From the NCBI RefSeq assembly GCF_964213995.1, contig NW_027590264.1:248001-284520 (forward strand): DNA of 36,520 bases. The letters run 5' to 3'. Origin of the DNA: Mustelus asterias. Its lineage: Eukaryota. The notes under the pieces were generated by a model. That model made no database searches and had not been told where the DNA came from. It saw nothing but the letters and a program-made list of their open reading frames with translations. Made by a program: the position numbers and the translations under genes. This document shows positions 14,491 through 33,733 of this stretch, in pieces. Within the stretch, counting starts at the first letter, position 1. Each line of letters starts with the position of its first letter.

Positions 14491-14563
14491 AGCTCTGTTT
14501 TCTGCCCGGAAACCATTTCTCAATCCATCCCAGTATTTTCCAAATTTGTGGATTGGACACAGT

Positions 14564-14738
14564 AAATTGCCGTTTCCTGTCCAAAGCTGTGTTGGTTCGG
14601 TGGATTAAGGTAAATGTGTGGGGTTACGGGGATAGGGCTGGGTCAAGGGCCTTGGTAAGATACTGTGCCAGAGAGTCAGTACAGACTCGATGGGCTGAAT
14701 GGTCTCCTTCTGCACTGCAGGGAATCTGTGACTCTACT
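14564..14738 (+). mobile_element. HE1-type SINE 3' fragment (CR1-derived tail)
   Basis: GGGGTTACGGGGATAGGGC...GACTCGATGGGCTGAATGGTCTCCTTCTGCACTG. Confidence 0.8.
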
Positions 14739-14832
14739 ATTAAGATCCCTTTGTCATTTGAAGCTTCCAGCTAAAATGCTGACAATGCTGCCTATTTCTG
14801 TGCACTTTGGCAAACGTTCTGTCTCATCACCG

Positions 14833-15035
14833 GGTGACACGGTGGCACAGTGGTTAGCACTGCTGACTCACAGCGCCAGGGATCTGGGTTCGATTCCCCG
14901 CCTCGAGTGACTGTGTGGAGTTTGCACGTTTGCTAAATTGCCTCTTAGTGTCAGGGGGATTCGGGCCTGGGTGGGATTATTGTCGGGGCAGGCTTGTTGG
15001 GCTGAATGGCCTCATTCTGCAGTGTAGGAATTCTC
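14833..15035 (+). mobile_element. HE1-type tRNA-derived V-SINE with internal deletions
   Basis: Head GGTGGCACAGTGGTTAGCACTGCTG (A box) and GGTTCGATTCC (B box), V-domain start TGTGTGGAGTTTGCACGTT, tail GGGCTGAATGGCCTC.TTCTGCA. Confidence 0.88.
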
Positions 15036-15119
15036 TGGCTCTTGGATCTTAAGTGGTTGATAAAGAGTGAAACTGAGACACAAACTGGGGCTTTGCAGCA
15101 GCAGACAGAATGGGAATCA

Positions 15120-15426
15120 TTGCATCCTGCAGGGATTTTTATTACAGAATCAATTTCAGAAAATTTACAACTCAAAATTAACAACAGCAAAGTGTGGGAT
15201 TGCAAACTTGGAATGATTAGCCCAGGACTAAAGTTTAAAAGCTACAGATTGACATTCAGAAACAAGAGATGGCCTCACATCTTCAATTCTTTGATTGTCT
15301 GGCATCTCCTGCTCTGAATATTACAAAATCTCTGCCCCCTTCATGCGTCTGGAGACTTTGAAAGTTACGCAGACATTGGTAAAACTTTCCTTTATCTCAA
15401 GGCATCTCCTGTGAAATACTCAACTT
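15120..15426 (-). other. Candidate minus-strand terminal exon / 3' UTR
   Basis: Acceptor attgtgtctctttgcag|AAG at 15427-15429. Stops occur early (EVEYFTGDALR* or KLSISQEMP*). AATAAA lies on the minus strand at 15138-15143. Confidence 0.25.
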
Positions 15427-15877
15427 CTGCAAAGAGACACAATCTAATTGACACTTTCTGAATCTCCTTTCAAACAACCTCCCAACCCCACTGTGCAGGA
15501 TGCAGGAATGTCACCTTTTGTCACATTCCCCAACACAATTGTTGACACCTTTTCGGGACAGGAAAAGTAGATTCAACTGACAGATTCTGAGCCCCAGGTT
15601 GAATCTTTAAGATGTAAAAATGAACTGAAACCCCAGGTCTCTCTGTTCCTGCAACTATTTTAACATTGACCCATTGATTTTAAATTGCTTCTCCTGTGTG
15701 TAAAATACCATCTATCAACTTCAGGTTTGAACATTAATAAGTGACTGAGCATCAACTGTGAATTATAGAAGGTAGTTCCAAACTAATATCACACCTGGTG
15801 TGGCAAAGTGTTCCTGAATTTCACTCCGAAAAGTCTAAAACCCGAAACATTGTCTAAAATCCAATGTCCCCCAAGTC

Positions 15878-17044
15878 CTGTCCCCATCAAACACTCCCAG
15901 GACAGGTACAGCACAGGGTTAGGTACAGAGTATAGCTCCCTCGACACTGTCCCCATTAAACACTCCATGGACAAATACAGCACGGGATTCAATACAGAGT
16001 AAAGGTCCCCCTACACTGTCTCCATCAAACACTCCCAGGACATGTACAGCACGGGTTTAGATACAGAGTGAAGCTCCCTCGACACTGTCTCCATCAAACA
16101 CTCCCAGGACAGGGACAGCACAAGGTTCGATACAGAGTAAAGCTCCTTCTACACTGTCCCCATTAAACACTCCCAGGACAGGTACAGCACGGGGTTCGAT
16201 ACAGAGTAAAGCTCCCTCTACACTGTCTCCATCAAACACTCGCAGGACAGGGACAGCACAGGGTTAGATACAGAGTAAAGCTCCCTCTACACTGTCTCCA
16301 TCAAACACTCGCAGGACAGGAACAGCAAAGGGTAAGATACAGAGCAAAGCTCGCTCTACACTGTCCCCATAAAACACTTCCAGGAGAGATACACCACGGG
16401 GATAGATACAGAGTAAAGCTCCCTCTACACTGTCCGCCATCAAACACACCCAGGACAGGTACAGCACGTGTTTAGATACAGAGTGAAGCTCCCTCTACAC
16501 TGTCCCCATCAAACACTCCCAGGACAGGTACAGCACGGGGTTAGATACAGAGTAAAGCTCCCTCTACACTGTCCCCATCAAACACTCCCAGGACAGGTAC
16601 AGCACGGGATTAGATACAGAGTAAAGCTCCCTCTACACTGTCTCCATCAAACACTCCCAGGACAGGTACAGCACGGGGTGAGATACAGAGTAAAGCTCCC
16701 TCGACACTGTCCCCATCAAACACTCCCAGGACAGATACAGCACGGGGTTAGATACAGAGTGAAGCTCCCTATACACTGTCCCCATCAAACACACCCAGGA
16801 CAGGTACAGCACGGGGTTAGATACAGAGTAAATCTCCCTCTGCACTGTCCCCATCAAACACTCCCAGGACAGGTACAACACGGGGTTAGATACAGAGTGA
16901 AGCTCCCGATACACTGTCACTATCAAATAATCCAATGACAGATACAGCATGGTGCTAGATTAAAGGAAAGGCTACCTCCACATTGTGCACATCAAACAGA
17001 CCCAGGACAGGTACAGCACGGGGTTAGATACAGCTCAAATCTTC
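15878..17044. repeat. 69/70-bp satellite array
   Basis: Same monomer. Ends with the conserved left junction ...GATACAGCTCAAATCTTC. Confidence 0.95.
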
Positions 17045-18470
17045 NNNNNNNNNNNNNNNNNNNNNNNNNNNNNNNNNNNNNNNNNNNNNNNNNNNNNNNN
17101 NNNNNNNNNNNNNNNNNNNNNNNNNNNNNNNNNNNNNNNNNNNNNNNNNNNNNNNNNNNNNNNNNNNNNNNNNNNNNNNNNNNNNNNNNNNNNNNNNAGA
17201 GTGTGTGTGAGAGAGAGAGTGTGTGCGAGAGAGAGAGTGTGTGCGAGAGAGAGAGTGTGTGCGAGAGAGAGAGTGTGTGCGAGAGAGAGAGTGTGTGCGA
17301 GAGAGAGTGTGTGCGAGAGAGAGAGTGTGTGCGAGAGAGAGAGTGTGTGCGAGAGAGAGAGTGTGTGCGAGAGAGAGTGTGTGTGCGAGAGAGAGAGTGT
17401 GTGCGAGAGAGAGAGTGTGTGCGAGAGAGAGAGTGTGTGCGAGAGAGAGAGCGTGTGCGTGAGAGAGAGCATGTGCGTGAGAGAGAGCGTGTGCGTGAGA
17501 GAGAGCATGTGCGTGAGAGAGAGCATGTGCGTGAGAGTGTGTGTGTGTGAGAGAGAGAGAGAATGTGTGTGTGAGAGAGAGTGTGTGTGAGGGAGCTAGT
17601 GTGTGCGAGAGAGAGAGCATGGGCGTGTGAGAGAGTGTGTGCGTGAGAGAGAGTGTGTGTGAGAGAGAGAGTGTGTGTGAGAGAGAGAGTGTGTGTGAGA
17701 GAGAGAGAGTGTGTGTGCGAGAGAGAGAGTGTGTGTGCGAGAGAGAGAGTGTGTGTGCGAGAGAGAGAGAGTGTGTGTGAGAGAGAGAGAGTGTGTGTGA
17801 GAGAGAGTGTGTGTGTGAGAGAGAGAGTGTGTGCGTGAGAGAGAGTGTGTGCGTGAGAGAGAGTGTGTGTGTGAGAGAGAGTGTGTGTGAGAGAGAGACT
17901 GTGTGTGTGAGAGAGAGAGAGTGTGTGTGCGAGAGAGAGAATGTGTGTGCGTGAGAGAGAGTGTATGTTTGAGAGAGTGTNNNNNNNNNNNNNNNNNNNN
18001 NNNNNNNNNNNNNNNNNNNNNNNNNNNNNNNNNNNNNNNNNNNNNNNNNNNNNNNNNNNNNNNNNNNNNNNNNNNNNNNNNNNNNNNNNNNNNNNNNNNN
18101 NNNNNNNNNTGTATGTGTGTGAGAGAGTGAGTGTATGTGTGTGAGAGAGTGAGTGTATGTGTGTGTGAGAGACTGAGTGCATGTGTGTGAGAGTGTGTCA
18201 GTTGGAGAGAATGCATGGGTGAGAGTGTGTGAGCGTGAAAGTGTGTGTGAGAGAGAAAGTGTGTGAGAGAGAAAGTGTGTGAGAGAGAATGTGTGTGAGA
18301 GAGGAAGTGTGCGTGAGAGAGAAAGTGTGTGTGTGACAGAGAGAAAGAACATGTGTGTGAGTGAGAGAGTGCGTAAGAGATAGTGTATGTGTGTGTGAGA
18401 GACAGAGAGAGCATGTGTGTGTGTGTGTGTGTGTGTGTGTCTGAGAGTGTGTAAGGAGAGCATGTGTGTG
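17045..18470. repeat. GT/GA microsatellite block (unit 6) with N gaps 17045-17197 and 17981-18109
   Basis: 18-bp unit expansion, plus the shared 3' signature and right junction. Confidence 0.92.
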
Positions 18471-18506
18471 ACCTGATCTTCCTCGACAGTCTATCAGTAA
18501 CTGAAT

Positions 18507-19085
18507 CACGGGATTAGATGCAAAGTAAAGCTCCCTCGACACTGTTCCCATCCAACACTCCCAGGAAAGGTACAGGTACAGCACAGAGTTCGATACAGAG
18601 TAAAGCTCTCTCTACACTGTTCCCATCAAACTCGCCCAGCACAGGTACAGCACGGGATTAGATAGAGTAAAGCTCCCTCGACACTGTCCCCATCAAACAC
18701 ACTCACGACAGATACAGCAAGTGGTTAGATATAGAGTAAAGCTCCCACTTCACTGTCCTCATCAAACACTCCCAGGACATATACAGCACAGGGTTAGATA
18801 CAGAAAAAGCTCCCTCTACACTATCCCCATCAAACACTCCCAGGACATGTACAGCACAGGGTTAGATACTGATAAAGCTCCCTCTACACTATCCCCATCA
18901 AACACTCCCAGGACATGAACAGCACGGGTTTAGATACAGAGTGAAGCTCCCTATACACTGTCCCCATCAAATAATCCAATGACAGATACAGCATAGTGCT
19001 AGATTAAAGGAAAAGCTGCCTCCACATTGTGCACATCAAACAGCCCCAGGACAGGTACAGCACGGGGTTATATACAGCTCAAATC
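18507..19085. repeat. 69/70-bp satellite array
   Basis: Same monomer. Confidence 0.93.
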
Positions 19086-21780
19086 AGAGAGTGTGTGAGC
19101 GAGGCAGAGAGTGTGTGTGAGAGACAGAAAGTGTGTGTGTGAGAGACAGAGAGTGTGTGTGAGAGACTGAGAGTGTGTGTGAGACAGAGAGTGTGTGTGT
19201 GAGAGACAGAGAGTGTGTGTGTGAGAGACAGAGAGTGTGTGTGTGAGAGACAGAGAGTGTGTGTGAGCGAGACAGAGAGTGTGTGTGAGCGAGACAGAGT
19301 GTGTGTGAGCGAGACAGAGAGTGTGTGAGAGACAGAGAGTGTGTGAGAGAGAGACAGAGAGTGTGTGTGAGAGAGACAGAGAGTGTGTGTGAGAGACAGA
19401 GAGTGTGTGTGAGAGACAGAGAGTGTGTGAGAGACAGAGAGTGTGTGTGAGCGAGGCAGAGAGTGTGTGAGCGAGGCAGAGAGTGGGTGTGAGAGACAGA
19501 GAGTGTGTGTGAGAGACAGAGAGTGTGTGTGAGAGACAGAGAGTGTGTGTGAGAGACAGAGAGTGTGTGTGAGAGACAGAGAGTGTGTGTGAGAGACAGA
19601 GAGTGTGTGTGAGAGACAGAGAGTGTGTGTGAGAGACAGAGAGTGTGTGTGCGAGACAGAGAGTGTGTGTGAGCGACAGAGAGTGTGTGTGAGCGACAGA
19701 GTGTGTGTGTGAGCGACAGAGAGTGTGTGTGAGCGAGACAGAGTGTGTGTGAGCGAGACAGAGTGTGTGTGAGCGAGACAGAGTGTGTGTGAGCGAGACA
19801 GAGTGTGTGTGAGCGAGACAGAGTGTGTGTGAGCGAGACAGAGTGTGTGTGAGCGAGACAGAGTGTGTGTGAGCGAGACAGAGTGTGTGTGAGCGAGACA
19901 GAGTGTGTGTGAGCGAGACAGAGTGTGTGTGAGCGAGACAGAGTGTGTGTGAGCGAGACAGAGTGTGTGTGAGCGAGACAGAGTGTGTGTGAGCGAGACA
20001 GAGTGTGTGTGAGCGAGACAGAGTGTGTGTGAGCGAGACAGAGTGTGTGTGAGCGAGACAGAGTGTGTGTGAGCGAGACAGAGTGTGTGTGAGCGAGACA
20101 GAGTGTGTGTGAGCGAGACAGAGTGTGTGTGAGCGAGACAGAGTGTGTGTGAGCGAGACAGTGTGTGTGAGCGAGACAGAGTGTGTGTGAGCGAGACAGA
20201 GAGTGTGTGATCGAGACAGAGTGTGTGTGAGCGAGACAGAGTGTGTGTGAGCGAGACAGAGTGTGTGTGAGCGAGACAGAGTGTGTGTGAGCGAGACAGA
20301 GTGTGTGTGAGCGAGACAGAGTGTGTGTGAGCGAGACAGAGTGTGTGTGAGCGAGACAGAGTGTGTGTGAGCGAGACAGAGTGTGTGTGAGCGAGACAGA
20401 GTGTGTGTGAGCGAGACAGAGTGTGTGTGAGCGAGACAGAGTGTGTGTGAGCGAGACAGAGTGTGTGTGAGCGAGACAGAGTGTGTGTGAGCGAGACAGA
20501 GAGTGTGTGAGCGAGACAGAGAGTGTGTGTGAGCGAGACAGAGAGTGTGTGTGAGAGACAGAGAGTGTGTGTGAGCGAGACTGAGAGTGTGTGTGAGAGA
20601 CAGAGAGTGTGTGTGAGAGACAGAGAGTGTGTGTGAGAGACAGAGAGTGTGTGTGAGAGACAGAGAGTGTGTGTGAGAGACAGAGAGTGTGTGTGAGAGA
20701 CAGAGAGTGTGTGTGAGAGACAGAGAGTGTGTGTGAGAGACAGAGAGTGTGTGTGAGAGACAGAGAGTGTGTGAGAGAGACAGAGAGTTTGTGTGAGCGA
20801 GACAGAGAGTGTGCGTGAGAGACATAGAGTGAGTGTGAGAGACAGAGTGTGCGTGAGCGAGACAGAGTGTGTGTGAGAGACAGAGAGTGTGTGTGAGACA
20901 GAGAGTGTGTGTGAGAGACAGAGTGTGTGTGAGAGACAGAGAGTGTGTGTGAGAGAGACAGAGTGTGTGAGCGAGACAGAGAGTGTGTGTGAGCGACAGA
21001 GAGTGTGTGTGAGAGAGACAGAGAGTGTGTGAGCGACAGAGTGTGTGTGAGAGACAGAGAGTGTGTGTGAGCGAGACAGAGAGTGTGTGTGAGAGACAGA
21101 GAGTTTGTGTGAGCGAGACAGAGAGTGTGTGTGAGAGACAGAGAGTGTGTGTGAGAGACAGAGTGTGTGTGAGAGAGACAGAGAGTGTGCGTGAGCGAGA
21201 CAGAGAGTGTGTGAGAGAGACAGAGAGTGTGTGAGAGACAGAGAGTGTGTGAGAGACAGAGTGTGTGAGAGACAGAGTGTGTGAGTGACAGAGTGTGTGA
21301 GAGACAGAGTGTGAGAGACAGAGTGTGTGAGAGACAGAGTGTGTGAGAGACAGAGTGTGTGAGAGACAGAGTGTGTGAGAGACAGAGTGTGTGTGAGCGA
21401 GACAGAGAGTGTGTGTGAGAGAGACAGAGAGTGTGTGAGAGACAGAGAGTGTGTGAGAGAGACAGAGAGTGTGTGTGAGAGACAGAGAGTGTGTGTGAGA
21501 GACAGAGAGTGTGTGTGAGAGACAGAGAGTGTGTGAGAGACAGAGAGTGTGTGAGAGACAGAGAGTGTGTGTGCATGCAAGTGAGTGAATGTGAGTGTGT
21601 GTGAGGGAGTATTCATGTGTGTGTTGATGAGAGTGTGTTAAAGCGAGTGTTTATGAGAGTGAGTGTGTGTGTGAGCAAGTGTGCAAGAGGGAGTGTGTAA
21701 AAGTGAGTATGTGTGTAATGTGTGTGAGACTGAGTAAGTGTACAACAGTGAGTGAGTGCTGGCGGGAGAGTGCAGGAGTG
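19086..21780. repeat. Minisatellite of 20-bp units GAGTGTGTGTGAGCGAGACA / GAGTGTGTGTGAGAGACAGA, degenerating after ~21575
   Basis: Near-perfect 20-bp period at ~19730-20500. Confidence 0.95.
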
Positions 21781-21782
21781 TT

Positions 21783-22079
21783 AAGTTTCAGTTTCATTAC
21801 GAGTGTCACAAGTCGGTTTACATTAACACTGCAATGAAGTTACTGTGAGAATCCCCGAGTCGCCCACACTCCGGTGCCTGTTCGGGTGACACTGAGGGAG
21901 AATTTAGCACGGCCAATGCACCCTAACCAGCACGTCTTTCAGACTGTGGGAGGAAACCGGAGCACCCGGAGGAAACCCACGCAGACACGGGGAGAACGTG
22001 CAGACTCCGCACAGACAGTGACCCAAGCCGGGAATCAAACCCGGGTCCCTGGCGCTGTGAGGCAGCAGTGCTAACCACC
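21783..22079 (-). mobile_element. Nearly full-length tRNA-derived V-SINE with the CACAGTAACTTCATTGCAGTGTTAATGTAA...TTGTGACAC tail (second shark SINE type)
   Basis: Minus-strand head GTGGTTAGCACTGCTGCCTCACAGCGCCAGGGACCCGGGTTTGATTCCCGG and V-domain GGGTTTCCTCCGGGTGCTCCGGTTTCCTCCCACAGTC. Confidence 0.92.
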
Positions 22080-22498
22080 GGTGATCAGGGGGAGAGTTAA
22101 CAGAAAGCAGCTGGTGAGAATATACTGGCCGGTTTTAATTTAATCCAAATTAATGAATTAGAAACTTTTAACCTAAGGAATTGACATCCGAGGATTTCAG
22201 TTTAAAATCCCATTGAACCTCCGTGTCTCATAATGGGATGTTTTTGCCTGTATTTAGTAATTAGTGACTTCATATCTCACAGCGAGATAAATAAAACTTT
22301 TTTCCAATTGACAGGGACAGCTCAATGGACAAAACTGGTGTGAGAAAGGGGCAAATCCTTTGAAAATGGAGGCAGAGAGGAGGCTTTGTTCAACTCCCAT
22401 TCTTTCCCTGTCTTCAGCAGGCTGGGCAGGAAGTGTGAGCAGAGAGGGGGGGATAGACAGACACACACTGACACAATCCCCCCAATCCACTCACTCAC

Positions 22499-22603
22499 AC
22501 ATCCCCATTCCCCCTCCACTCGCTGGGTTGTGGGGAGCGGCTGCAAGGATTTTTGGGGCTGCTGTGCGGGGGTCAGGGGGCTTTTGAAATGGACGAACAC
22601 GAC
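22499..22603 (-). other. Candidate 105-nt minus-strand internal exon (VVFVHFKSPLTPAQQPQKSLQPLPTTQRVEGEWGC in phase 0)
   Basis: Acceptor aactttatttcttttcccccgtag|G and donor TGT|gtgagt. Length is divisible by 3 and two frames are open. Confidence 0.3.
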
Positions 22604-23100
22604 CTACGGGGGAAAAGAAATAAAGTTTGAAACTAAACTAAAGAAACTAAAGGCAGGAGATTGCAGAATCCATTGCCTCCCTGCATTAACATATCAATAG
22701 TCAGTCTGACATTGCCACAAACTCCTCTGGGGTGAGAGGGTGAGAGGGGGAGGGGGGGTGAATTAGCATCTCAATAGAGAGACAGACATTGCAGACATGT
22801 CAGAGACTCAGGGTGGGGTTTGCATCCAGCACACTCAGGATAAATGTGAATCTGAGAGCCTTCAGTCTCCACACCAATAATCCCCCTGCACTGAAAACAT
22901 TCCCACTCTGATTCAGTGTGTGTGTGTGTGTCTCAATCTGCGTTTTTACCTGTGCTTTGCTTGTGTTGACATGATGCTGAATGGACTTGAATGGAAATGC
23001 TGGACTCCTCGCTGTGATATGTTGTGTGTCTTATTGTTAAAATGGCCTTGTCTCTTTTTCTCTCTCTTTTTAACCAATTTTTATCTCTTTTTCTCCTGAG

Positions 23101-23225
23101 GAATTTTGAAAACTGGGGATGTGTCGAGGATCCAAAGGACGGGAATGATTGTGACCAGGATGAGGGAGAGGAGCTTCTTCCAGAGGGAGGGCTGACTGAG
23201 GCCTGTTGCTCAGGCTTCATCCCGA
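23101..23225 (+). other. Candidate exon A0, a diverged paralogue of the 102-nt cassette (NFENWGCVEDPKDGNDCDQDEGEELLPEGGLTEACCSGFIP, phase 2 to 1)
   Basis: Acceptor tctctttttctcctgag|G and donor A|gtgagt. The downstream intron GTGAGTTG..TTTATTA.CCTGATCCAG.TTTAAT matches that of A1, A3 and A4. Confidence 0.45.
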
Positions 23226-23616
23226 GTGAGTTGTGTCTATTTATTAACCTGATCCAGATTTAATGTTTCATATCAGAGGGAGCGAGATCTGAATGAGAGT
23301 GGAATAGAGAGAGAGAGAGAGAAACACACAGGGAGGGAACTGTCTCAATCTCTTTAGTCTCTGCTTTACAACTGACTTGTTGTGTTTGGGTGTTACTGAG
23401 AGATTGTGTAACTGAGGGGAGATCCTGGGTATTTTGCTGTGCTATGTAATTTAAATATTTTCTTGTATTTTAATTATTTTCTCTCTCTTTCCCCAAGAAT
23501 TAATATTTAGATTTTACTGAGAGATTGTGTAACTGAGAAGGGGGAATCCTGGGCTCTTGTGCTATTTAATTTAAAGAATTCTTGTATTTTAATTTATTAT
23601 TTTCTCTTCTCCCCAG

Positions 23617-23718
23617 GAATTTGAATTTTGAAGACTGCAATGTGACTCGGAATCCTTGGACAAGGGGCTTTTCTCCAGAGGAGGATGGATGGACTGAAGC
23701 CTGTTCTATAGGCCGCAT
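23617..23718 (+). other. Candidate exon A1, 102 nt, phase 2/2 (NLNFEDCNVTRNPWTRGFSPEEDGWTEACSIGR)
   Basis: ttttctcttctccccag|GAATT...CGCAT|gtgagt. Only the phase-2 frame is open. Confidence 0.55.
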
Positions 23719-24540
23719 GTGAGTTGTCGTCTCTTTATTACCCTGATCCAGGTTTAATTTTAATCTCGCTTCCTCGGATGAATCAGTTCTGGTTCGATTG
23801 TGGGGTGTGGGGGGGCATCTGGAGTTTGAAACCCTGGGGTTAAAATATCCCGGCTTTGCAGTTAGTCAGAAACAGGTTAACCCTTTGCTGGGTGGCAGAG
23901 AGTAAATTAAATGTCTGTAATATGAAGCTGTCTCAAAGTTAGTTTTAAATCCAAGATAACAGGGATGGGAGACAGAGCGCTGTTCCTAATTGTTGAATAA
24001 AATTCATAGAGGCCTTTATAATTCAGTTTTCAGATGTTCAGACTTTCATTGTGTCCTCTCTGCAGCTTTTCCCCCATTCTGTCTATTTCTCTCTGCTTTC
24101 TCTCTCTCTTTCTCTCCCTTTCCTTCCTCTATCTGTCTCTCTTTTTTATTCCCTCTCTCTCCCTCTTTTTCCCAGGAAGTCATATTTTGTTGGACAATCT
24201 CTCAGTAAAATCTGAGAAGGGGGAATCTTGGGCTCTTGTGCTATTTAATTTAAACATTTTCTGGTATTTTAATATATTTCTCTCTCTTTTACCCAAGAAT
24301 TAATATTTAGATTTTACTGAGAGATTGTGTAACTGAGAAAGGGGAATCCTGGTCTCTTGTGCTATTTGATTTCAACATTTTCTTGTATTTAAATTAATTA
24401 TATTCGATCTCTTCCCAAGGAATTCATATTTAGTTAAACAATCTCTCAGTGAAATCTTAGAAGGGGGAATCCTGGGCTCTTGTGCTATTTAATTTAAACA
24501 TTTTCTTGTACTTTAATTAATTATTTTCTCTTCTCCCCAG

Positions 24541-24642
24541 GAATTTGAATTTTGAAGACTGCAACATGACTCGGAATCCTTGGACAAGGGGCTTTTCTCC
24601 AGAGGAGGATGGATGGACTGAGGCCTGTTCTATAGGCCGCAT
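24541..24642 (+). other. Candidate exon A2, 102 nt, phase 2/2 (NLNFEDCNMTRNPWTRGFSPEEDGWTEACSIGR)
   Basis: Same splice signals and length as A1. Confidence 0.55.
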
Positions 24643-25218
24643 GTGAGTCATCGTCTCTTTATTACAGGGATGGGAGACAGACCGCTGTTCCTAATTGTTG
24701 AATAAAATTCACAGAGGCCTTTACAATTCAGTTTTCAGAAGTTCAAAATTTCATTTCGTCCTCTCTGCAGCTTTTCCCCCATTCTGTCTATTTCCTCTCT
24801 GCTTTCTCTCTCTCCATCCCTTTCCTTCCTCTATCTGTCTCTCTTTTTTATTCCCTCTCTCTCTCCCTCTTTTTCCCAGGAAATAATATTTTGTTGGACA
24901 ATCTGTCAGTAAAATCTGAGAAGGGGGAATCTTGGGCTCTTGTGCTATTTAATTTAAACATTTTCTGGTATTTTAATATATTTCTCTCTCTTTTACCCAA
25001 GAATTAATATTTAGATTTTACTGAGAGATTGTGTAACTGAGAAAGGGGAATCCTGGGCTCTTGTGTATTAAATTTAAACATTTTCTTGTATTTAAATTAA
25101 TTATATTCGATCTCTTCCCAAGGAATTAATATTTAGTTGGACAATCTCTCAGTGAAATCTTAGCTCTTGTGCTAAACATTTTCTTGTATTTTAATTAATT
25201 ATTTTCTCTTCTCCCCAG

Positions 25219-25320
25219 GAATTTGAATTTTGAAGACTGCAATGTGACTCAGAATCCTTGGACAAGGGGCTTTTCTCCAGAGGAGGATGGATGGACTGAG
25301 GCCTGTTCTTTAGGCCGCAA
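25219..25320 (+). other. Candidate exon A3, 102 nt, phase 2/2 (NLNFEDCNVTQNPWTRGFSPEEDGWTEACSLGR)
   Basis: ccccag|GAATT...CGCAA|gtgagt. Confidence 0.55.
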
Positions 25321-25775
25321 GTGAGTTGTCGTCTCTTTATTACCCTGATCCAGGTTTAATTTTAGTCTCGCTTTCTTGGACGAACCAGTTCTGGTTCGAT
25401 TGTGGGATGGGGTGGGGTGGAGTTTAAAACCCTGGGGTTAAAATATCCCGGCTTTGCAATTAGTCACAAACAGGTTAACCCTTTGCTGGGTGGCAAAGAG
25501 TAAATTAAATATCTGTAATATGAAACTGTCTAAAAGTTTGATGCAAATCCAAAATAACAGGGGTGGGAGAGAGTGATTTACCCGAATGTTAAATAAGATT
25601 CACAGAGGACATTACAATTCAATTTTCTGAAGTTCAGCCATTACATTTATCTTCCCCTCTGCAGCTTTCTTCCCCATTCTATTTAGCTCTGCTTTTCTCT
25701 CTGTCTCTCTCTCCAGTATTTTTCCCCTATCTTCAGCTTTCTCTCCCTTCCTGTTTCTTTCCATTCATCTCTCCC

Positions 25776-25983
25776 TCTCGAGCATTCTTCCATATCTGTC
25801 CATCACTCACCAGAATGTCTCTCTCTCCCTCTCGAGCATTCTTCCATATCTGTCTATCACTCTCCAGAATGTCTCTCTCTCGAGCGTTCTTCCATATCTG
25901 TCCATCACTCTCCAGAATGTCTCTCTCCGTCGAGCATTCTTCCATATCTGTCTTTCACTCTCCAGAATGTCTCTCTCTCTCTC
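25776..25983. repeat. Minisatellite, four copies of ~48-54 bp (TCGAGCATTCTTCCATATCTGTCCATCACTCTCCAGAATGTCTCTCTC)
   Basis: Seen directly. Confidence 0.9.
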
Positions 25984-26682
25984 TGGCTCCATCTTCCTTT
26001 GTGTCTCTTTAAACCTTTAATCAACAAAAACTGTGTTATTGTAAACAGGGAGACAGGAATATGGCATCGCTCATTTCAATGCAGAGTACATGAGAGAGAG
26101 GGAAAGAAACAGCTATGGACAGAGACAACGAGTGAGAAAGAGAGGGGACAGGGACAAGGATCTAGACAGGAACATCCATCTTTACACTGAGTGAGAGAGA
26201 CAGGAGCAGAGGGAGAAAAGAGAGGGAGATAGTGAAAGGGAGATGGAGGGAGTTGTAGAAACCAATCCCGGGAGGGCGATTTTAAAAAGTGTCCCGAAGG
26301 AATCAGCAGCCCCTTCCCAAACTGAAAGAGGGAGATGAGCAGCTCCTGGAGTCTGAGAGGGAGACAGGGATGGACTGGGGGGTTGTGGATATTTGAATTC
26401 AGTTTTAGGAGATTCTGTTTGTAGACTTCTCTCTCTCTGTTCATGCCATTCTGATGTTTCTGAGAGATTGTGTAACTGAGAAGGGGGAATCCTGCGTTTC
26501 GGTGAGATTTAATTTCAATGGTTTCTTGTATTTAATTAATTTTCTCTCTCTTTTCCCCAAGAATTCATATCTAGTTAGACAATCTCTCAGTAAAATCTGA
26601 GAAGGGGAATCCTGGGCTCTTGTGCTATTTAATTTAAATATTTTCTTGTATTTTAATTAACTATTTTCTCTCTTCTCCCCAG

Positions 26683-26784
26683 GAATTTGAATTTTGAAGA
26701 CTGCAACGGGACTCGGAATCCTTGGACAAGGGGCTTTTCTCCAGAGGAGGATGGATGGACTGAAGCCTGTTCTATAGGCCGCAT
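26683..26784 (+). other. Candidate exon A4, 102 nt, phase 2/2 (NLNFEDCNGTRNPWTRGFSPEEDGWTEACSIGR)
   Basis: tcttctccccag|GAATT...CGCAT|gtgagt. Confidence 0.55.
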
Positions 26785-27297
26785 GTGAGTTGTTGTCTCT
26801 TTATTATCCTGATCCAGGTTTAATTTTAATCTTGCTTCCTCGGATTCGATTGTGGGGAGGGGGGGCTGGAGTTTGAAACCCTGGGGTTAAAATATCCCGG
26901 CTTTGCAATTAGTCGCAAACACGTTAACCCTTTGGTGGGTGGCAGAGTAAATTATGTATGAAACTGTCTATAAGTTTGCTTTAAATCTAAAATAACAGGG
27001 GTCGGAGACAGAGCAATGAACCTAATTGTTGAATAAAATTCACAGAGGCCTTTACAATTCAGTTAACAGATGTTCAGATTTTCATTTCATCCTCTCCACA
27101 GCTTTTCCCCCATTCTGTCTATTTCTCTCTGCTTTTCTCTCCATTTCCTTCCTCTCTCTGCCTCTCTTTAATCTCTCTCTCTCCCTCTTTTTCCCAGGAA
27201 TTAATATTTAGTTGGACAATCTCTCAGTAAAACCTGGAAAGGGGCAATCCTGGGATTTTGTGCTGTGTAATTTTCATTCTGGGTGTCCCGGGGGGTT

Positions 27298-29170
27298 TGA
27301 TTTCACTGTCTCAGCCCCTCTCTGCCTCACTCTCTCTCTCTCTCTGTATAAACTTTTCCCAAATTACAAAACACTCAACACAGCTGACTGCACCTTGTGG
27401 GATCTTGCTGGGGATTTTGTTTTAAAAAGGGGTGTTTTCTCAGAGGCAGTTTAAACCTTTCAGGGGACTGCGGGGAAGTCTCCAGACTTGGGACAACACA
27501 CACACAGGGTTGGGGGCTGGGGTTGGCGGGCGGGGAGGTGGGCAGTCAGGTATACTGGTATTCTGGGAGACTGATATTCCCAACAAGGGCCAGAGGTCTC
27601 AGTGCTGAAACATATTAAACTGTTCAAACAGAGGCAGGCAGAAAGCCATGAGGCTTCAGAGCTCCCTGTAGATGCAAAGGTAACTCTGTCAAAAAGTAGC
27701 CACATGTGAAGTGGAAACACCTTCCCTCAGCTTGTTACACACTGACCTTTCCACAACCCCAACATGTTTACAAACACTCGCTGCAGTTTCTGCAAACTTT
27801 GTATCAAACTGCCTCCCATTCTGCTCAATACTGACCCCCTCTCAACCTGGCACTGAACTAGTGTCTGAATTGAGACAGAGACACAGACAGAGGTTTTAAA
27901 GTTGAAAGTTTTAAAGTTTGATTATTAGTGTCACAAGTAAGGCTTACATTAACACTGCAATGAAGTTACTGAGAGAGACAGAGACACACAGAGACAGAGA
28001 CATAGATAAAGAGACAGAGAGGATATTTAAAGTTTTAAAGTTTGTTTATTCGTGTCACAAGTAAGGCTTACATTAACGCTGCAGTTACTGAGAGAGACAG
28101 AAAGAGAGAGTTTTTAAAGTTGAAAGATTTAAAGTTTATTTCTTAGTGTCACAAGGCTTACATTAACACTGCAATGAAGTTAGTGAGAAAGACAGAGATA
28201 GAGGGAGCATCCAGAGTGGGTTCAGTAACACATTTATTGATCAGATATCTCTCTCTGTGACTCTTTAGCGATGAGATATTCAGCCAGGATGGTTTCACTG
28301 ACCCTCTTCAGCAGGCAGATATTCCCAAATCCAGCCCAGGTCTCAGACACACACACCACTCACACATTCCCTCTGCTCTGTCCAAGGGAATATTTTAATC
28401 CAGGAATTTCTATTTTATATTTACAGGGTGAGGGGGGGGAGAAACTCAACTCAAAAATCCTGCAGTCTCTCCAAGCTGCTTTTAAATTTCAATTCAAACC
28501 CTGGGCCACATGGGAAGCTGCAGAGATTGGGAAACTTACCAAACCCAGTTTGTGTGTGTGAGTGTCTGCAGCTTTTGTGTCTTTGAACTTGCGAGGGTGC
28601 CAGGGAGAGAATGTCACTGTCTTCACCTCTCTCTCTGCCTCTCTGTATAAAAATAATCACCAAATTAAACCACACTCAATAATGCGACCATACACAATTA
28701 ATTATCAAATATCTGTCTCTCTCGCTTTATCTCTGTCTCTCCCCGTCTCTCTCTCTCCCTGTCCTCTCTCTCCCTGTCTCTTCTCGAGCAGAAACAGATG
28801 GAGACAGAGAGGGAGAGAGAGGGAGGAAGAGGGAGGGATGGAAACAGCTGGAGTTGTGGGTTAGATGCAGGGGGAGAGACACAGGCTGTTGGAGGGAGGG
28901 GGGGTTTCAGTGAGGGACAGGGTCTCCAGTTTAATTCTGAGGGTCCTGAGAGAGGGATTTCACTGTCTCAGCCCCTCTCTGGCTCCCTCACTCTGTATAA
29001 ACAATTCTCAAATTAAAAAACGCTCAACACAGCTGACTGCACTTTGTGGGATCTTGCTGTGCACCACAGGGATTTTAGTTTTAAAAAGGGTTACTTTTAA
29101 GAGGGAGTTCCAGCCTTTCTGGAGATTTGGGATGATGCAGACACACACACACACACACACACAGGGTAGT
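27298..29170 (+). repeat. Dispersed duplicated block with TATAAA (27298-27510, 28613-28680 partial, 28958-29170)
   Basis: TTTCACTGTCTCAGCCCCTCTCTG...CTCTGTATAAA...CTCAACACAGCTGACTGCAC.TTGTGGGATCTTGCTG is shared. Confidence 0.85.
27894..28185 (-). mobile_element. Three tandem copies of a SINE 3'-tail fragment (same tail as 21783)
   Basis: AAAGTTT..TT..TAGTGTCACAAGTAAGGCTTACATTAACACTGCAATGAAGTTACTG at 27894-27971, 28027-28091 and 28112-28185. Confidence 0.88.
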
Positions 29171-29409
29171 GAGTGGGGAAGGGGGCTCACAGCAGGCAAG
29201 AGAGTGGGGAACGGGTGGGGGAAGGACTGTGTCCCATCTGATTCAGGTTCACATTGCTGCTGCTACTGTGGGATCTTGCTGTGCACACACTGGGCCTGTG
29301 GCCTTTGCCTGCACAGCAACAGCGCCCACACTTTTTATTTTCAAACAAAGTCTGGCTCAGGGACCGCAAAGTGGGTTCAAGGAAAAAGCTTGAAAAGGGG
29401 TCGGGTAAA

Positions 29410-29543
29410 TTCAAGCACTTTAATCGCCAAGGCATCGTAGGCTCTGGAGCAAGTGCTGGGGAATGGGAGGAGGATAGATTGGGATTTGATGGCCAGCATG
29501 GAGCTGGTGGGCCGAAGGGCCTGTTTCTGTGCTGTGTGACTCC
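29410..29543 (+). mobile_element. Old CR1 3'-end fragment
   Basis: GGCCAGCATGGA..TGGTGGGCCGAAGGGCCTGTTTCTGTGCTGT. Confidence 0.75.
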
Positions 29544-30201
29544 AGATTCTTTTCTCTCTCTCTTTTCCCAGGAATTTCTATTTGGATGGGGGGGGGGGGT
29601 ATAGAATTTCTCTGTCTCTCCAGTGTTCTTACCAATCCCAGCACCCCTCCCCTCCCCTCTCTCTCTCCCCAGACATTCCTGTCTATATTTCATCTTTCAA
29701 TAAAATGTTTAAGAAAACACCAATGTGAATTGTTGTCAATTTAATTTGGGAAGAGAGAGAGAGAGAGAGGAGTGGATCCCATTTCCCACACACTCTCCTG
29801 CAGTCCTCACCCACAACATTTATTTAATCTGGCCCTCACCAGGTTGTGTGTGTGGGATCTTGCTGTGCACACAGGTGGGTCTGGCTCCCTATTCCTCGCA
29901 CTGTGACCGTGAGCAGAACTTTAAACAGGAAAGATTGAGGGGAAGGAGAAGGGTTGGGGAGGCGGAGGAGGCAGAGAGAGAGAGATAGAGAAATGGAGGG
30001 AGAGCTAAACAGAGAGGGGGTGGGGGAGGTGTGAGAGGGTCTCAGGAGGGGCAGGGGGAAAGAGACACAGTCTGGGGGTGTCCTCCTCCACTGTGGGACT
30101 GGCAGTGGGATCTTGCTGTGCAGAATTACCTTCATTGTCATTTGAATCATTCATTCATTGACTAAGGGAGGGTGGGTGTGTGATTGTGGGATTATAAATA
30201 T

Positions 30202-31251
30202 TGTTACCACTCTGAGGTGATGTTTCCCTCTGCGCTATTTTGTAACCCCCTAAAGGGATACACCTCGCCTCGTAATCTTAAATAAGTGTGTGTGAGACAG
30301 GAGGAAGCGACTGGTTTTAGACATTCAATCCCTACAGTGCAGAAGGAGGTCATTCGGCCCATCTAGTCTGTACCGACCACAATCCCACCCAGGCCCTATT
30401 CCCGTAACCCCACACTTTTAACCTGCTAATCCCCCTGACACTGGGGTCAATTTAACACGGCCAATCCACCGAACCCGCACAGCTTTGGACTGTGGGAGAA
30501 ATTGGTAAATTAAAGCAAGATCTGACACTCTCTCCATCAGGAACAACCAAACAGGTCTTTAATTTAGACTGGGTGACAACCTTATTAAAACAATGAACAA
30601 ACTGAATAAACTCCCCAGTAGAATGCTGTTCCAAGGACAAGACTCACTCAGGAATAATGAAATAAATCATTACAGAATAGAGTCACCCTCGAATAACCAG
30701 GCGTCTGTTGGAAGTGTGAACTTGCTTCTGCTGCTTGGGTCTGGAATACTTTCTGAGTTGGTTTCTGCTTCTATTTAGATGGTGATGTGATGAAGCTGTA
30801 TATATTACTGCAGGATTCAGTATCAGACTCTCCCCCCTTCAATCTAAAGAGGCAGCAAGGTCGCTCCCTCCCCGTTATTTCCCCCTGTCCCGGGTTTAAA
30901 TACCCAGAATTTCCTCACAGTATTCCTGCAATTTGAGTGGCTTGAGGCTGTCACCAACGCCCCAATTTGAATGCAATTGGTTGTGTGCGTTTGAGAGCTT
31001 GTTTTAAAATCATTGGTCCAGTTCAAAGCCTGTTTTGCTCTGCTGGGACTCTGGCTGCTGCTTTGGACACAAATGTTGTAAAGTTGTGTTCTGCAGCCTG
31101 CTTTCTGCAGTTTAAAATCCCCAGCACAGAGACACAGGCTTTCTAAAGACACAACGCTGGATGGTTCGTTTTGGTTTTCTCAGCATTTCTTTTCAATATT
31201 TACATTTGTCAAACACCACATTTTTAACCTGATATACGCAACTTCATAACA
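30202..31251 (-). mobile_element. Solo LTR (Ty3/Gypsy- or ERV-like) with TGTTA...TAACA termini and 4-bp TSD ATAT
   Basis: TGTTACC starts at 30202 and CATAACA ends at 31251. ATAT occurs at 30198-30201 and 31252-31255. The minus strand has CCAAT boxes (~31015, ~30978), TATTTAAA (~30903-30896) and ATTAAA (~30563-30558). Confidence 0.75.
30322..30498 (-). mobile_element. HE1-type SINE fragment nested in the solo LTR
   Basis: CCCTACAGTGCAGAAGGAGGTCATTCGGCCCATC...GGCCAATCCACC..ACCCGCACA.CTTTGGACTGTGGGAG. Confidence 0.88.
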
Positions 31252-31341
31252 ATATTAGACAGGGAGAGAGAGATCGGGAGAGACAGAGAGAAAGTCACAC
31301 AAAGAGAGAGAGAGACAGGGAGACAGAGAGAGAGAGAGAGT

Positions 31342-31443
31342 CACATGGAGTAATGAGGATGGGGCCTGGATGGGAATGTGGTTGGTGTAGACCTGATGGG
31401 CCGAATGGCCTCCTTCTGTACTGTAGGATTCTGTGATTCTGTA
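31342..31443 (+). mobile_element. HE1-type SINE 3' tail
   Basis: GATGGGCCGAATGGCCTCCTTCTGTACTGTAGGATTCTGTGATTCTGT. Confidence 0.82.
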
Positions 31444-31614
31444 ATGGGGGCTGCGTGCGGTGTGAGGGGAGGGTGGAAGGGGACAGGGGGTGGGGGCAGC
31501 ACTGGTTCCCTTTTCCCCCCTCCCTCCTCCCAGGCCCTGTCCGGGAGGTTTCGGGGCTGGAGGGGATTGTTCTGGTGAACTGGCCGGGGCCTGGGGAACC
31601 TGTTCTTTGTCCAG

Positions 31615-31760
31615 GATGTATAATGCAGCCTCTGTGACCAGGCCTCAATCCCAGGCCTAACCTCAGGAAGGCTTTTGCATTTTGCTCCTTTTCCAAACAG
31701 TGCCTGTGTTTAAATCGATGGGACTCGACGGTCGAATAAAACCTGCAGCAGTCACTTTAA
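31615..31760 (+). other. Candidate terminal exon B1 (phase 2: MYNAASVTRPQSQA*, AATAAA 31735-31740)
   Basis: Acceptor cctgttctttgtccag|G, stop 31658-31660, polyA signal. Paralogous to B2. Confidence 0.35.
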
Positions 31761-31761
31761 T

Positions 31762-32217
31762 ACAAAGAACAGCACAGCACAGGAACAGGTCCTTTGGCCC
31801 TCCAAGCCTGCGCCGATCATGTTTACCTATCGAGACCAATGGCCTGTATCCCTCTCTACCCCGTTTGTTCATGTGTCTATCCAGATAAGTCTTAAATGTC
31901 ACTAATGTATCTGCCCCAACCACCTCACTTGGCAGCGCATTCCAGGCCCCCACCACCCTCTGTGTAAAAACCTTCCCCGCACATCTCCACTCAACCTTTC
32001 CCCCCTTATCTTGAACTTGTTCCCCCTTGTAATTATCATTTCTGTCCTGGGAAAAAGCTCCCAACTGTTTATCCTCGCCACACCCCTCATAATTTTATAA
32101 ACTTCCAGCTGGTCGTCCCTCAGCCTCCGTCTTTCCAGGGAGAACAATCCCAGTTTATTCAATCAATCCTCACAGCCAATACCCTCCATACCAGGCAACA
32201 TCCTGGTCAACCCTTTC
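31762..32217 (-). mobile_element. 5'-truncated CR1 LINE 3' fragment
   Basis: Minus-strand ORFs LGLFSLERRRLRDD and FTQRVVGAWNALP, with a CTGTGCTGTGCTGTTCTTTGT tail. Confidence 0.92.
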
Positions 32218-32479
32218 ATTGGATTTGGGATGTGATTGTGGGTTTTCCTGCTATATCTCTTTCTCTTCAATCTTTCTCCCGTGATTGTGAGTTATCAGGG
32301 AGGGAGAGAGAGAGAGAGAGAGAAAGGGATGGTAACAGAGAGAGAGGGAGAGAGGGCAAAGGCAGAGGGGCAGGGAGAGGAGAGAGATTGGAGGGGAGTG
32401 GGTTAGAGGGGGGCGGGGGGGGGGGGGAGCCTCCGCTGTGCACTCACAGCCCAGCAGCTCCCCAGTCTCTGGTTCGGTG

Positions 32480-32603
32480 CATTAACCCACTCTGGTGCAT
32501 TAACAGGCGCCAGAGTGTGGCGACTAGGAGAATTTCACAGTAACTTCATTGCAGTGTTAATGTAAGCCTTACTTGTGACTAAGAAATAAACTTTACTTTA
32601 CTC
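32480..32603 (+). mobile_element. V-SINE 3' fragment (same family as 21783)
   Basis: AACAGGCGCCAGAGTGTGGCGACTAGG..ATTTCACAGTAACTTCATTGCAGTGTTAATGTAAGCCTTACTTGTGACT..AAATAAACTTTACTTTAC. Confidence 0.88.
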
Positions 32604-33733
32604 TGAGATAAAGACCCTCACTCACAGCCTCCCAGAAGGTGGGATTTAGAAACAGCGACTGTGTAACTGAGGCTGAATCTGTGCTGTTGTGTTTGAAAAT
32701 ACATTGCAGTGAGAGAGAGATCTGGCTTTGCAGGAGGAGCTTCCCTCCCCATTTCCCCACGGAAATCACTGAGAAATAGCAAGCGTGGCCCACAACACGT
32801 CATTATTTGAAACGGTCAGACAGAAACTTATCAGAGAGAGCATTTTAATCCCCATTCATCCCCAGACGGAGAAACAGAGCAGAGATCAGGACAGATTATC
32901 CAGAGTAGGAGAGACCGGGGCAGAGATGGGGTTTGGATATATATAGATCTGGGGGGAAAGCAAAAGAGACACAGAGGGGGCTGGACAGGTTCAGAGATAG
33001 AGGCAGAGAAACAGGCAGAGAGAAAGAAACAGCGAGAGACAGAGGGAATGGGAGAGGTGTGACTGTGCTCGAAGTGGAAGGTTCCCTGTTCATATTGAAT
33101 GTACAAACAGCCCCAATCCTGGAGTGACTTGTCATTATTTTTATTTGGGGTGGGGGAAGAGATGGAGGGGGGGAGCAAGGGAGAGAGAGGGAGAAGTGTG
33201 GTTCCCTCATTGCCCACTCACTTTAGCCCAATCCTCACTTAAAAATCACTTTGTATCTGGCCCTGCCCAGACTGTGTGTGTGGGATCTTGCTGTGCCCTC
33301 CTCCCCGCCCCATATTCCCTGCACTGTGACAGCGCCCCACACTTTAAACATGAAAAGATGGAGAGGAAGGAGGGTGGGGTAGAGAGAGAGGAACAGAGAA
33401 TGGGTGGGGAGTGTGGGGGGGCTCAGGGGAGGGGGGGTAGGGGGATAGAGACAGAGTCTCTGGGGGTGGGGGGTGTCCTCCTGCAGTGTGGGACTCCCTG
33501 TGGGATCCTGATTGCAGCATTCCCAGTCTCTCTCTCTCTCTCACTGTGAAGCACTCGGGAGGGAGAGGGAGCTGAAATTCAAATTCCTGAGCCTGGGGGA
33601 AAGGCTTGTTCTCAATCCCAGAGTCCTGCTTGTGTTTTTAGACAGGGCGCTGGGATTTGTGGGTGTGGATGGAGAAGATTGTTCTGTTTAACTGGGGGGT
33701 GGGAGAGAGGGGGGTTTGTTCTTTCTACCTGAG

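Follow-up and report, generated by a model that had tools for sequence, protein, structure and literature searches.

A 22-nt core within a tandem, splice-acceptor-like module of the shark Mustelus asterias was likely inverted once, after which both forms were likely multiplied by duplication, and the RNA stems that they are predicted to form are a probable by-product. The window, i.e. the whole stretch of DNA analysed, comprises 36,520 nt of the forward strand (assembly GCF_964213995.1, contig NW_027590264.1, positions 248,001-284,520). Scanning it in both orientations, we relocated eleven copies of a 26-nt segment, five forward and six reversed, with 0-4 mismatches in 26, at the positions and in the order given by the original prediction. 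The copies lie within tandem modules of ~121 nt, and alternate module copies carry an inverted part of the module. Such a module contains a pyrimidine tract and an AG and is repeated head to tail ahead of an exon-like piece, most of the copies being weakened. When up to 8 mismatches were allowed over the whole window, the sole further match was at 15569 (8 mismatches).

Two forward (+) copies come first, a partial one of an old lineage at 23388..23413 (matching from 23393) and one at 23509..23534, which is more than 650 nt from the nearest reversed (-) copy. They are followed by two reversed-forward-reversed triplets: 24188..24213, 24309..24334 and 24432..24457 in triplet 1, whose middle copy is predicted by folding to pair with either neighbour, and 24892..24917, 25013..25038 and 25135..25160 in triplet 2. 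Then come a forward copy (26452..26477), a reversed copy (26573..26598) and the last reversed copy (27210..27235), which is more than 700 nt from any forward copy. A long pyrimidine tract and a CAG stand upstream of the first copy of triplet 2 (CAG at 24879) and of the last reversed copy (CAG at 27197). The inverted core measures 22 nt and is bounded by AG and CT, ends that are identical in either orientation; the reversed cores of the window differ from the reverse complement of the forward form at 1-4 positions. At least 15 nt are thus the reverse complement of their homologous counterpart between collinear flanks, which is what we took as a micro-inversion. The flanks had been described as constant, but this does not hold for the left flanks of 23388 and 26452, nor for the right flanks of 25135, where a deletion has shortened it, and 27210.

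Genome-wide, 1193 reversed and 909 forward copies were matched (more than 2,000 in all). No exact inverse of the forward form stood in a reversed slot among the 1193 reversed copies, and reversed-type letters were found in one forward copy, against the 909 forward matches. At position 6 the forward form predicts C, but G or A is present in 457 of 465 reversed copies. Since all reversed copies share private letters, almost none of which revert, the data argue for one old micro-inversion and not for a flipping switch. A tree built from flanks alone (151 haplotypes) contained 7 orientation changes, compared with a mean of 49 and a minimum of 40 in 200 shuffles; orientation tracks flank lineage. 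A DNA switch that keeps flipping, through recombinase action or recurrent template switches, would account for 7 changes on this tree instead of one, and for the forward copy with a reversed-type letter. It is nevertheless highly improbable: private letters of the reversed form essentially never occur in forward slots, nor vice versa, the extra changes fit crossing-over between modules, and ends of only 2 nt are not of recombinase length. According to PMC8755829, moreover, site-specific recombination needs a loop of at least 33 bp. No strand-change joint was seen among the matches listed in contigs of 4 of 7 sequencing runs, such contigs dropping rare variants.

Polarity was taken from diverged paralogues within this genome and not from another species. 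A diverged older relative of the module at 32643..32691 (+) aligned with a score of 43 to the forward form, a value that none of 300 shuffles reached, and 29 to the reversed form. A second one at 34340..34387 (+), before another exon-like piece, scored 34 (1 of 300 shuffles as good) against 30 and 31 for two reversed forms. In four diverged contexts the forward form matched better than the reversed, and by these alignments it is likely ancestral. If so, the local TCTCAG/CTGAGA hairpin of the reversed form, mentioned in the original prediction along with a template switch, is a product of the inversion and not its cause.

The inversion likely struck one copy of the ~121-nt acceptor-like module, whose 22-nt core would have flipped once via a template switch or microhomology-led repair. 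The switch could have used the short AG/CT ends, where TTTAG and CTGAG would pair with two G-T wobbles. Tandem and segmental duplication then likely multiplied both forms, and the alternation would reflect a forward-reversed doublet copied by unequal crossing-over. The inverted repeat at the edges is perfect over 2 nt (AG/CT) and reaches 5 nt only with the two wobbles. Human-chimpanzee micro-inversions are reported to be 17-33 nt long, and flanking repeats of 3-75 nt are given for human ones (PMC8755829). The perfect 2-nt ends are shorter than those repeats, so template switching and microhomology-led repair are both candidate mechanisms. With template-switch micro-inversions as described under the four-point model of Loytynoja and Goldman (PMC5453318; PMC8755829), the shark event shares an in-place, near-exact reverse complement of 22-26 nt, within the 17-33 nt range, unchanged flanks and complementary ends. 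It differs from them in its shorter perfect ends, and in that it hit a single copy among tandem modules; both states therefore survive side by side, complement each other and now number more than 2,000 copies. Literature searches, largely of open-access papers, returned no paper that deals with the unit or with a micro-inversion among tandemly repeated acceptors; a paper on the human Y that came up was unrelated.

The modules belong to a segmental duplication of more than 20 kb, present in several hundred copies in the genome, which extends in the window over approximately 11935..36275 (comparison of contigs, whose long blocks are mostly 90-98% alike). We compared 866 segment copies in 87 loci; these were picked by segment matches and are biased, and our two locus samples of the unit are both biased and short of a full census. 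Writing E for an exon-like piece, the common module orders in the 87 loci were -+-E (114), ++E (75), +-E (30), +-+E (19) and +-+-E (12); the rare ones included -- (7), -++-E (3), -E (3), +E (3) and --E (1). Each form occurs between 0 and 3 times in a block, and the order varies. The triplet is kept in 82 of these 87 segment-selected loci, and is missing from 15 of 20 further loci, 8 of which have lost 23578-27693 and with it every reversed copy and every E piece. Module order varies through gain and loss. What the paralogues show, namely both forms, frozen, in varying module orders over several hundred unit copies, bears out the simpler of the explanations first proposed, a single micro-inversion spread by later duplications.

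That the two orientations are an artefact of assembly or sequencing is scarcely credible. The copies do lie mostly on repeat-rich smaller contigs, but each form has its own lineage variants over the 866 copies, and run contigs from other studies span both forms at high identity (X6 at 23384-23506 and 26465-26598; X2 at 23339-23637 and 27178-27315). T-cell receptor V genes were considered as a fixed partner of the unit and rejected: they lie near 3 of the 8 units examined and are absent within 20-40 kb of the other 5.

We infer that the unit is a non-coding transcription unit, perhaps spliced, or a decayed one. An exon-like piece E0 of 125 nt (23101..23225, +) has a GAG acceptor and a GTGAGT donor and is out of phase with E, a 102-nt piece with a CAG acceptor and a GTGAGT donor that occurs four times on the same strand (23617..23718, 24541..24642, 25219..25320 and 26683..26784). 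End pieces bearing AATAAA accompany them. A 31-mer of E0 has 211 exact matches in the genome, and a search for an older single-copy parent of E, with 3 mismatches allowed, gave, among the matches listed, exact copies only. The E pieces are near-identical, 6 of their 32 variants are silent (20% expected by sites), and one subfamily has a 2-nt loss; by sequence, the exon-like pieces look non-coding. Pfam gave no family for four translated pieces, and no protein relative of E0 or E was found among longer proteins, short queries making these weak tests. A spliced E-E junction, as in a processed copy, had 0 matches in the genome. Contigs of 4 of the 7 runs contained no GT..AG joint among the matches listed and extend over introns as well as exon-like pieces; they resemble DNA and are uninformative on expression.

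If the unit is transcribed, stems would form in its RNA. Neighbours of opposite orientation are spaced 121-123 nt apart with 20-26 predicted pairs; ~120 nt and ~23-25 bp had first been proposed. The hairpin at 24300-24465 has a predicted energy of -45.7 kcal/mol (z -4.07; none of 200 shuffles folded as well). Two mutually exclusive partners for the central copy of a triplet, as the original prediction had it, are thermodynamically plausible: the rival stems, when forced, have similar predicted energies, about equal in triplet 1 (-130.7 and -129.9 kcal/mol), with -125.9 and -131.6 kcal/mol in triplet 2. In short-window folding a single stem dominates, with ~24 expected pairs vs 0.1. A 2-kb fold places 24188:24309 within 23509:24432, looping out the first E piece.

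The acceptor-like sites fit poorly with a structure-gated choice of acceptor of the Dscam1 type. A polypyrimidine-AG had been expected inside the stems, and an AG is indeed looped out, but in all 5 window cases it is AAG and not the exon-type CAG. Among 372 in-loop sites, 327 are AAG, 10 are TAG, 35 have none and 0 are CAG. The CAG precedes E in 262 of 263 copies, outside local stems. Outside them too is a pyrimidine tract (24096..24175, +; 94% over 80 nt) that ends in CAG 12 nt upstream of the first reversed segment. A strong CAG is found 12 nt before the first reversed copy in 239 of 245 blocks.

We also looked for selection on the pairing. There were no compensatory changes in 372 opposite-neighbour pairs of these young paralogues, and 23 of 33 paired-site variants break the pair, matching the prediction from flank rates (p 0.55). 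Segment variation equals that of the adjacent flanks, with 25 variants over 312 sites of the segments and 84 over 1029 sites of the adjoining module parts. Some observations speak against a mere by-product. Compared with wider controls the segments vary somewhat less, with 26 variants in 52 sites vs 154 in 188 (p 0.018), 1.65 parsimony steps per site vs 2.1-3.2, and 25 in 312 vs 265 in 2164 (p 0.04; rare variants alone p 0.29). The stem-less ++E block has the same dip (6 in 52 vs 89 in 413, p 0.14). Opposite neighbours outnumber like ones, 372 to 88, although these events are not independent, and most of the segment-selected loci keep a triplet. The two commonest in-stem changes of reversed copies, at positions 5 and 20, retain pairing as G-U, and the position-6 pair is restored in 8 reversed copies and 1 forward copy. 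Nothing seen points to selection for the stems, and weak selection is hard to detect because the copies are young.

The Dscam1-like choice thus finds no backing: it lacks in-loop CAG and compensatory change, and unit families without triplets or without the whole cluster exist. A lesser version, in which accidental stems now shape splicing, is unlikely. Here the middle copy would pair upstream or downstream, and 23509 would pair across the first E piece with 24432 or 24188, causing that piece to be skipped or the choice to shift between the long-tract CAG at 24175 and the exon E CAG at 24540. The near-equal forced energies of triplet 1 and those of triplet 2, the looped-out E piece of the 2-kb fold and the strong CAG before the first reversed copy speak for it, as does the proposal that competing structures originate when one arm of a stem is duplicated (PMC6071210). 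Against it, besides the findings that count against the Dscam1 analogy, one stem wins outright in short windows. Choosing among E pieces would in addition change little because they are near-identical and under no coding constraint. As in Dscam1 as described in PMC7430681, one sequence has two or more partners complementary to it, close to exon-like pieces that were duplicated in tandem, with pairing predicted to be mutually exclusive. Dscam1, however, has one docking site and a selector beside each variable exon, whereas the shark unit has no single docking site, its E pieces are not distinct coding exon variants, its pairing is not retained through two-sided changes and its arrangement differs between paralogues. 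In contrast to the duplicated-arm origin of PMC6071210, the shark stem would arise from an inversion in a duplicate and not from an older stem.

One pair of copies stands alone. A solo 230-nt reversed-forward piece (L031) is found on a large contig, where a young Penelope-like repeat flanks it with inverted arms. Inverted and direct arms surround the insert, with a ~44-nt inverted arm and an 11-12-nt target duplication, and sibling copies have the same head-to-head arms. In these siblings we saw by eye a core that is presumably hammerhead-like, and Rfam found 0 hammerheads at gathering score in the loci; the family label rests on layout plus this motif. Penelope-like elements as described in PMC8557442 share with L031 a truncated inverted arm beside a direct arm and differ from it in that no reverse transcriptase frame was seen in its 3-kb loci. 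They are reported there to be able to carry intron-containing host RNA in trans.

Capture from unspliced plus-strand RNA would fit the solo piece, and this would accord with the unit being a multicopy non-coding RNA family whose putative 20-26-pair stems serve as dsRNA for ADAR editing or small RNAs. The hundreds of copies, the stable predicted hairpin, the splice-signal pieces and the AATAAA-bearing ends are consistent with such a role, and template switches can reportedly create miRNA hairpins. We nonetheless regard it as quite unlikely. Rfam gave no match on the modules with the E cutoff relaxed as far as 1, its sub-threshold microRNA hits falling only on CT/GA repeats elsewhere; the shark loop is ~95 nt, unlike pre-miRNAs, which are 60-70 nt long; pair-breaking variants are common and stems have been lost in several unit families.

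A likely one-time inversion followed by duplication leaves the predicted stems as a probable by-product. There is a small chance that we see a competing RNA structure at its birth, i.e. a strong stem made from nothing by a micro-inversion, with copied rival partners. Its pairings would already influence which exon is skipped or which acceptor is chosen, or would supply dsRNA, in a family of non-coding RNAs with several hundred copies in this shark, and the paralogues would be its natural mutants. The locus documents a mutational scar and carries a caution, as tandem duplication plus a tiny inversion, with no sign of selection, gives a pattern that mimics a Dscam-type switch. It also offers a way in which competing stems could arise without a pre-existing one. 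Should an effect on RNA prove true, the hundreds of -+-, --, ++ and deleted paralogues would constitute a natural test of early splicing control.

A pattern search of the window located 11 copies of the segment within 23388-27235: five are forward and six reversed, and their succession is the one listed in the original prediction. The module, of about 121 nt, opens with a left flank of 12 nt, followed by the segment itself, then a purine-rich right flank, AT-rich sequence, a pyrimidine tract and, last, an acceptor-like end. AG and CT bound the 22-nt core that is inverted. Two or three modules form a block in front of an exon-like piece of 102 nt, E, with CAG and GTGAGT ends, and blocks of 0.7-1.4 kb are repeated in turn within the cluster. 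The window lies at G000:C232:248001-284520, and its cluster belongs to a unit longer than 20 kb that recurs on other contigs, with long blocks mostly 90-98% alike and families set apart by large deletions. Exact genome matches number 909 for the forward form with its right flank, 1193 for the reversed form and 211 for a 31-mer of E0, an exon-like piece at 23101-23225. A 24-mer of E has 1428 matches with up to three mismatches allowed; 87 sampled loci average 3.0 E pieces each (263 in all), which would put the genome at roughly 400-500 E-bearing units.

Paralogous copies were sampled from 87 loci, which gave 401 forward and 465 reversed segments. At position 6 the forward form predicts a C in reversed copies; 457 of them carry G or A and 8 carry C. 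Genome-wide, none of the reversed slots matched a precise inverse of the forward form, with a pattern that would miss those 8 copies, and one forward copy carries a reversed-type letter. Locus L071 (G000:C51:368322-368344) holds the sole forward copy whose letter change perfects the stem with its neighbour (26 of 26 pairs), through a point mutation or else a template switch that perfected the stem. A flank-only tree of 151 haplotypes, built from the 562 modules (of 866) whose flanks were complete, has 7 changes of orientation, versus at least 40 in all 200 shuffles; the surplus changes would reflect crossing-over between modules. The reversed form likely has a single origin, and orientation has been frozen since. 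As the forward form is the better match for two module types whose left flank differs (23388 and 26452) and for two diverged relatives (32643 and 34340), it is likely ancestral; three other places compared with both forms gave no information.

In size and exactness the segment resembles human-chimpanzee micro-inversions, of 17-33 nt in the available text of PMC8755829, and it fits the four-point template-switch model of PMC5453318, whose outcomes include the inversion of a fragment alone. In the core test the segment behaved as a micro-inversion. With perfect ends of 2 nt, either template switching or microhomology-led repair may have produced it. One micro-inversion in a module, then spread by duplication, quite probably explains the segment pattern; this simpler reading, already named in the original prediction, is supported by the private letters of reversed copies, the flank tree and the micro-inversion test.

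RNA folding predicts that adjoining opposite copies pair at -28 to -36 kcal/mol, and the fold of 24300-24465 has a z of -4.07 against shuffles. The middle copy pairs almost wholly with its downstream partner in folds of 530-560-nt windows. The proposed comparison of alternative triplet stems gave rival pairings close in energy when forced (-130.7 versus -129.9; second triplet -125.9 versus -131.6). When 2 kb are folded, the upstream stem sits within a long-range stem joining 23509 to 24432, by which the first E is looped out. Competition is thus plausible on paper. The stems had also been expected to loop out a polypyrimidine-AG. Predicted stems between neighbours retain 20-26 pairs. The acceptor-like end enclosed by the 372 opposite-neighbour pairs is never CAG: it is AAG in 327 and TAG in 10, and 35 have no AG. 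AAG is a rare and weak acceptor in vertebrates. CAG precedes E in 262 of 263 cases, and a long pyrimidine tract with CAG stands before the first reversed copy of a block in 239 of 245. Local stems would thus conceal the weakened acceptor copies, both strong sites staying outside, and the exon would be reachable by long-range pairing only.

In two of the 372 opposite-neighbour pairs both sides depart from the majority, and in neither case do the changed letters pair. Paired sites show 33 distinct variants: 10 preserve the pair and 23 break it, where flank rates would predict 26% preserving it (p 0.55). Compared block by block, with columns near gaps and rows below 90% identity dropped (10 of 27 in the +-E class), variants numbered 25 over 312 segment sites and 84 over 1029 sites of adjacent module flanks. 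Segments were less variable than pooled wider controls (p 0.018 in one comparison; p 0.04 in a second, with p 0.29 for rare variants), and took 1.65 parsimony steps per site on the flank tree versus 2.1-3.2 in controls. This lower variation counts against the reading of the stems as a by-product; the stem-less ++E block dips alike. Power to detect selection is low because the copies are young.

Block types in the 87 loci, coded by segment orientations before E, were -+-E (114), ++E (75), +-E (30), +-+E (19), +- (13), +-+-E (12), -- (7), +-+ (7) and rarer forms, in a sample chosen by segment matches that leans toward triplets (82 of 87 loci hold one). Twenty further loci were chosen by E or E0 matches, eight of them for having no segment-pattern matches, and lean the opposite way. 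Two hold triplets; three end early, two running on into triplet blocks in loci L035 and L042 and the third probably so; seven have ++E, --E or -E, and +-E with no triplet; and eight are deleted for window 23578-27693, every reversed copy and every E being gone. The unit therefore also multiplies where the competing arrangement is missing. Dscam1-type systems have a single docking site, distinct coding exons and compensatory conservation in the available text of PMC7430681. The first two are absent here and the third was not found, and the Dscam1-like structure-gated acceptor choice fails on all three. The module cluster resembles the duplication-born competing stems in the available text of PMC6071210 and would work alike. 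In all, a functional RNA role of the stems is unlikely.

An isolated 230-nt piece with a reversed-forward pair lies on contig C6 (L031:4770-5160; G000:C6:64957170-64957560), flanked by inverted arms of a young dispersed repeat and an 11-12-nt target duplication. Of 1336 candidate source copies 40 were scored, and none of the best-scored runs on into that repeat. Its layout matches that of Penelope-like elements, which according to PMC8557442 are able to carry host RNA with introns in trans. Capture from unspliced plus-strand RNA would fit and would hint indirectly at transcription; a DNA patch is a possible alternative. A SINE-like insertion common to 15 loci (L025 on contig C558, L020-L021 on C178 and 13 more) shares its place in the module, some 24 nt past the segment, with the right junction of this piece: two events at a single point, which is perhaps favoured for cutting.

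V gene segments with 23-spacer signals, presumably T-cell-receptor-like by their motifs, lie downstream of three of eight units within the fetched 20-40 kb. Their arrays, in both orientations, are at loci L013-L016 (8-38 kb past the window end) and L072-L077, and one five-finger C2H2 gene (minus strand) is among these neighbours. In window 1-21600, arrays of a 69-nt minisatellite alternate with arrays rich in GA/GT and with pieces of CR1-like LINEs (12851-14200); a further such piece lies reversed at 31762-32217.

Neither a protein family nor an RNA family matched the unit, which covers window 23000-36275 and recurs at several hundred further places in the assembly. E has a single open frame; of 32 distinct variants 6 are silent, versus 20% of sites, in 131 of 133 copies after the two with indels were left out. 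E0, of 125 nt, is out of phase with E and 14 nt shorter in one subfamily; one E has lost 2 nt in another. From its sequence the unit looks non-coding. A related pair of pieces at 31615-31740 and 33734-33849, each preceded by an acceptor and ending in AATAAA, resembles alternative last exons, and a third AATAAA follows an acceptor-like site at 29699. Such downstream pieces with acceptors and AATAAA suggest that the unit may give a non-coding, spliced transcript or else be a gene that has decayed.
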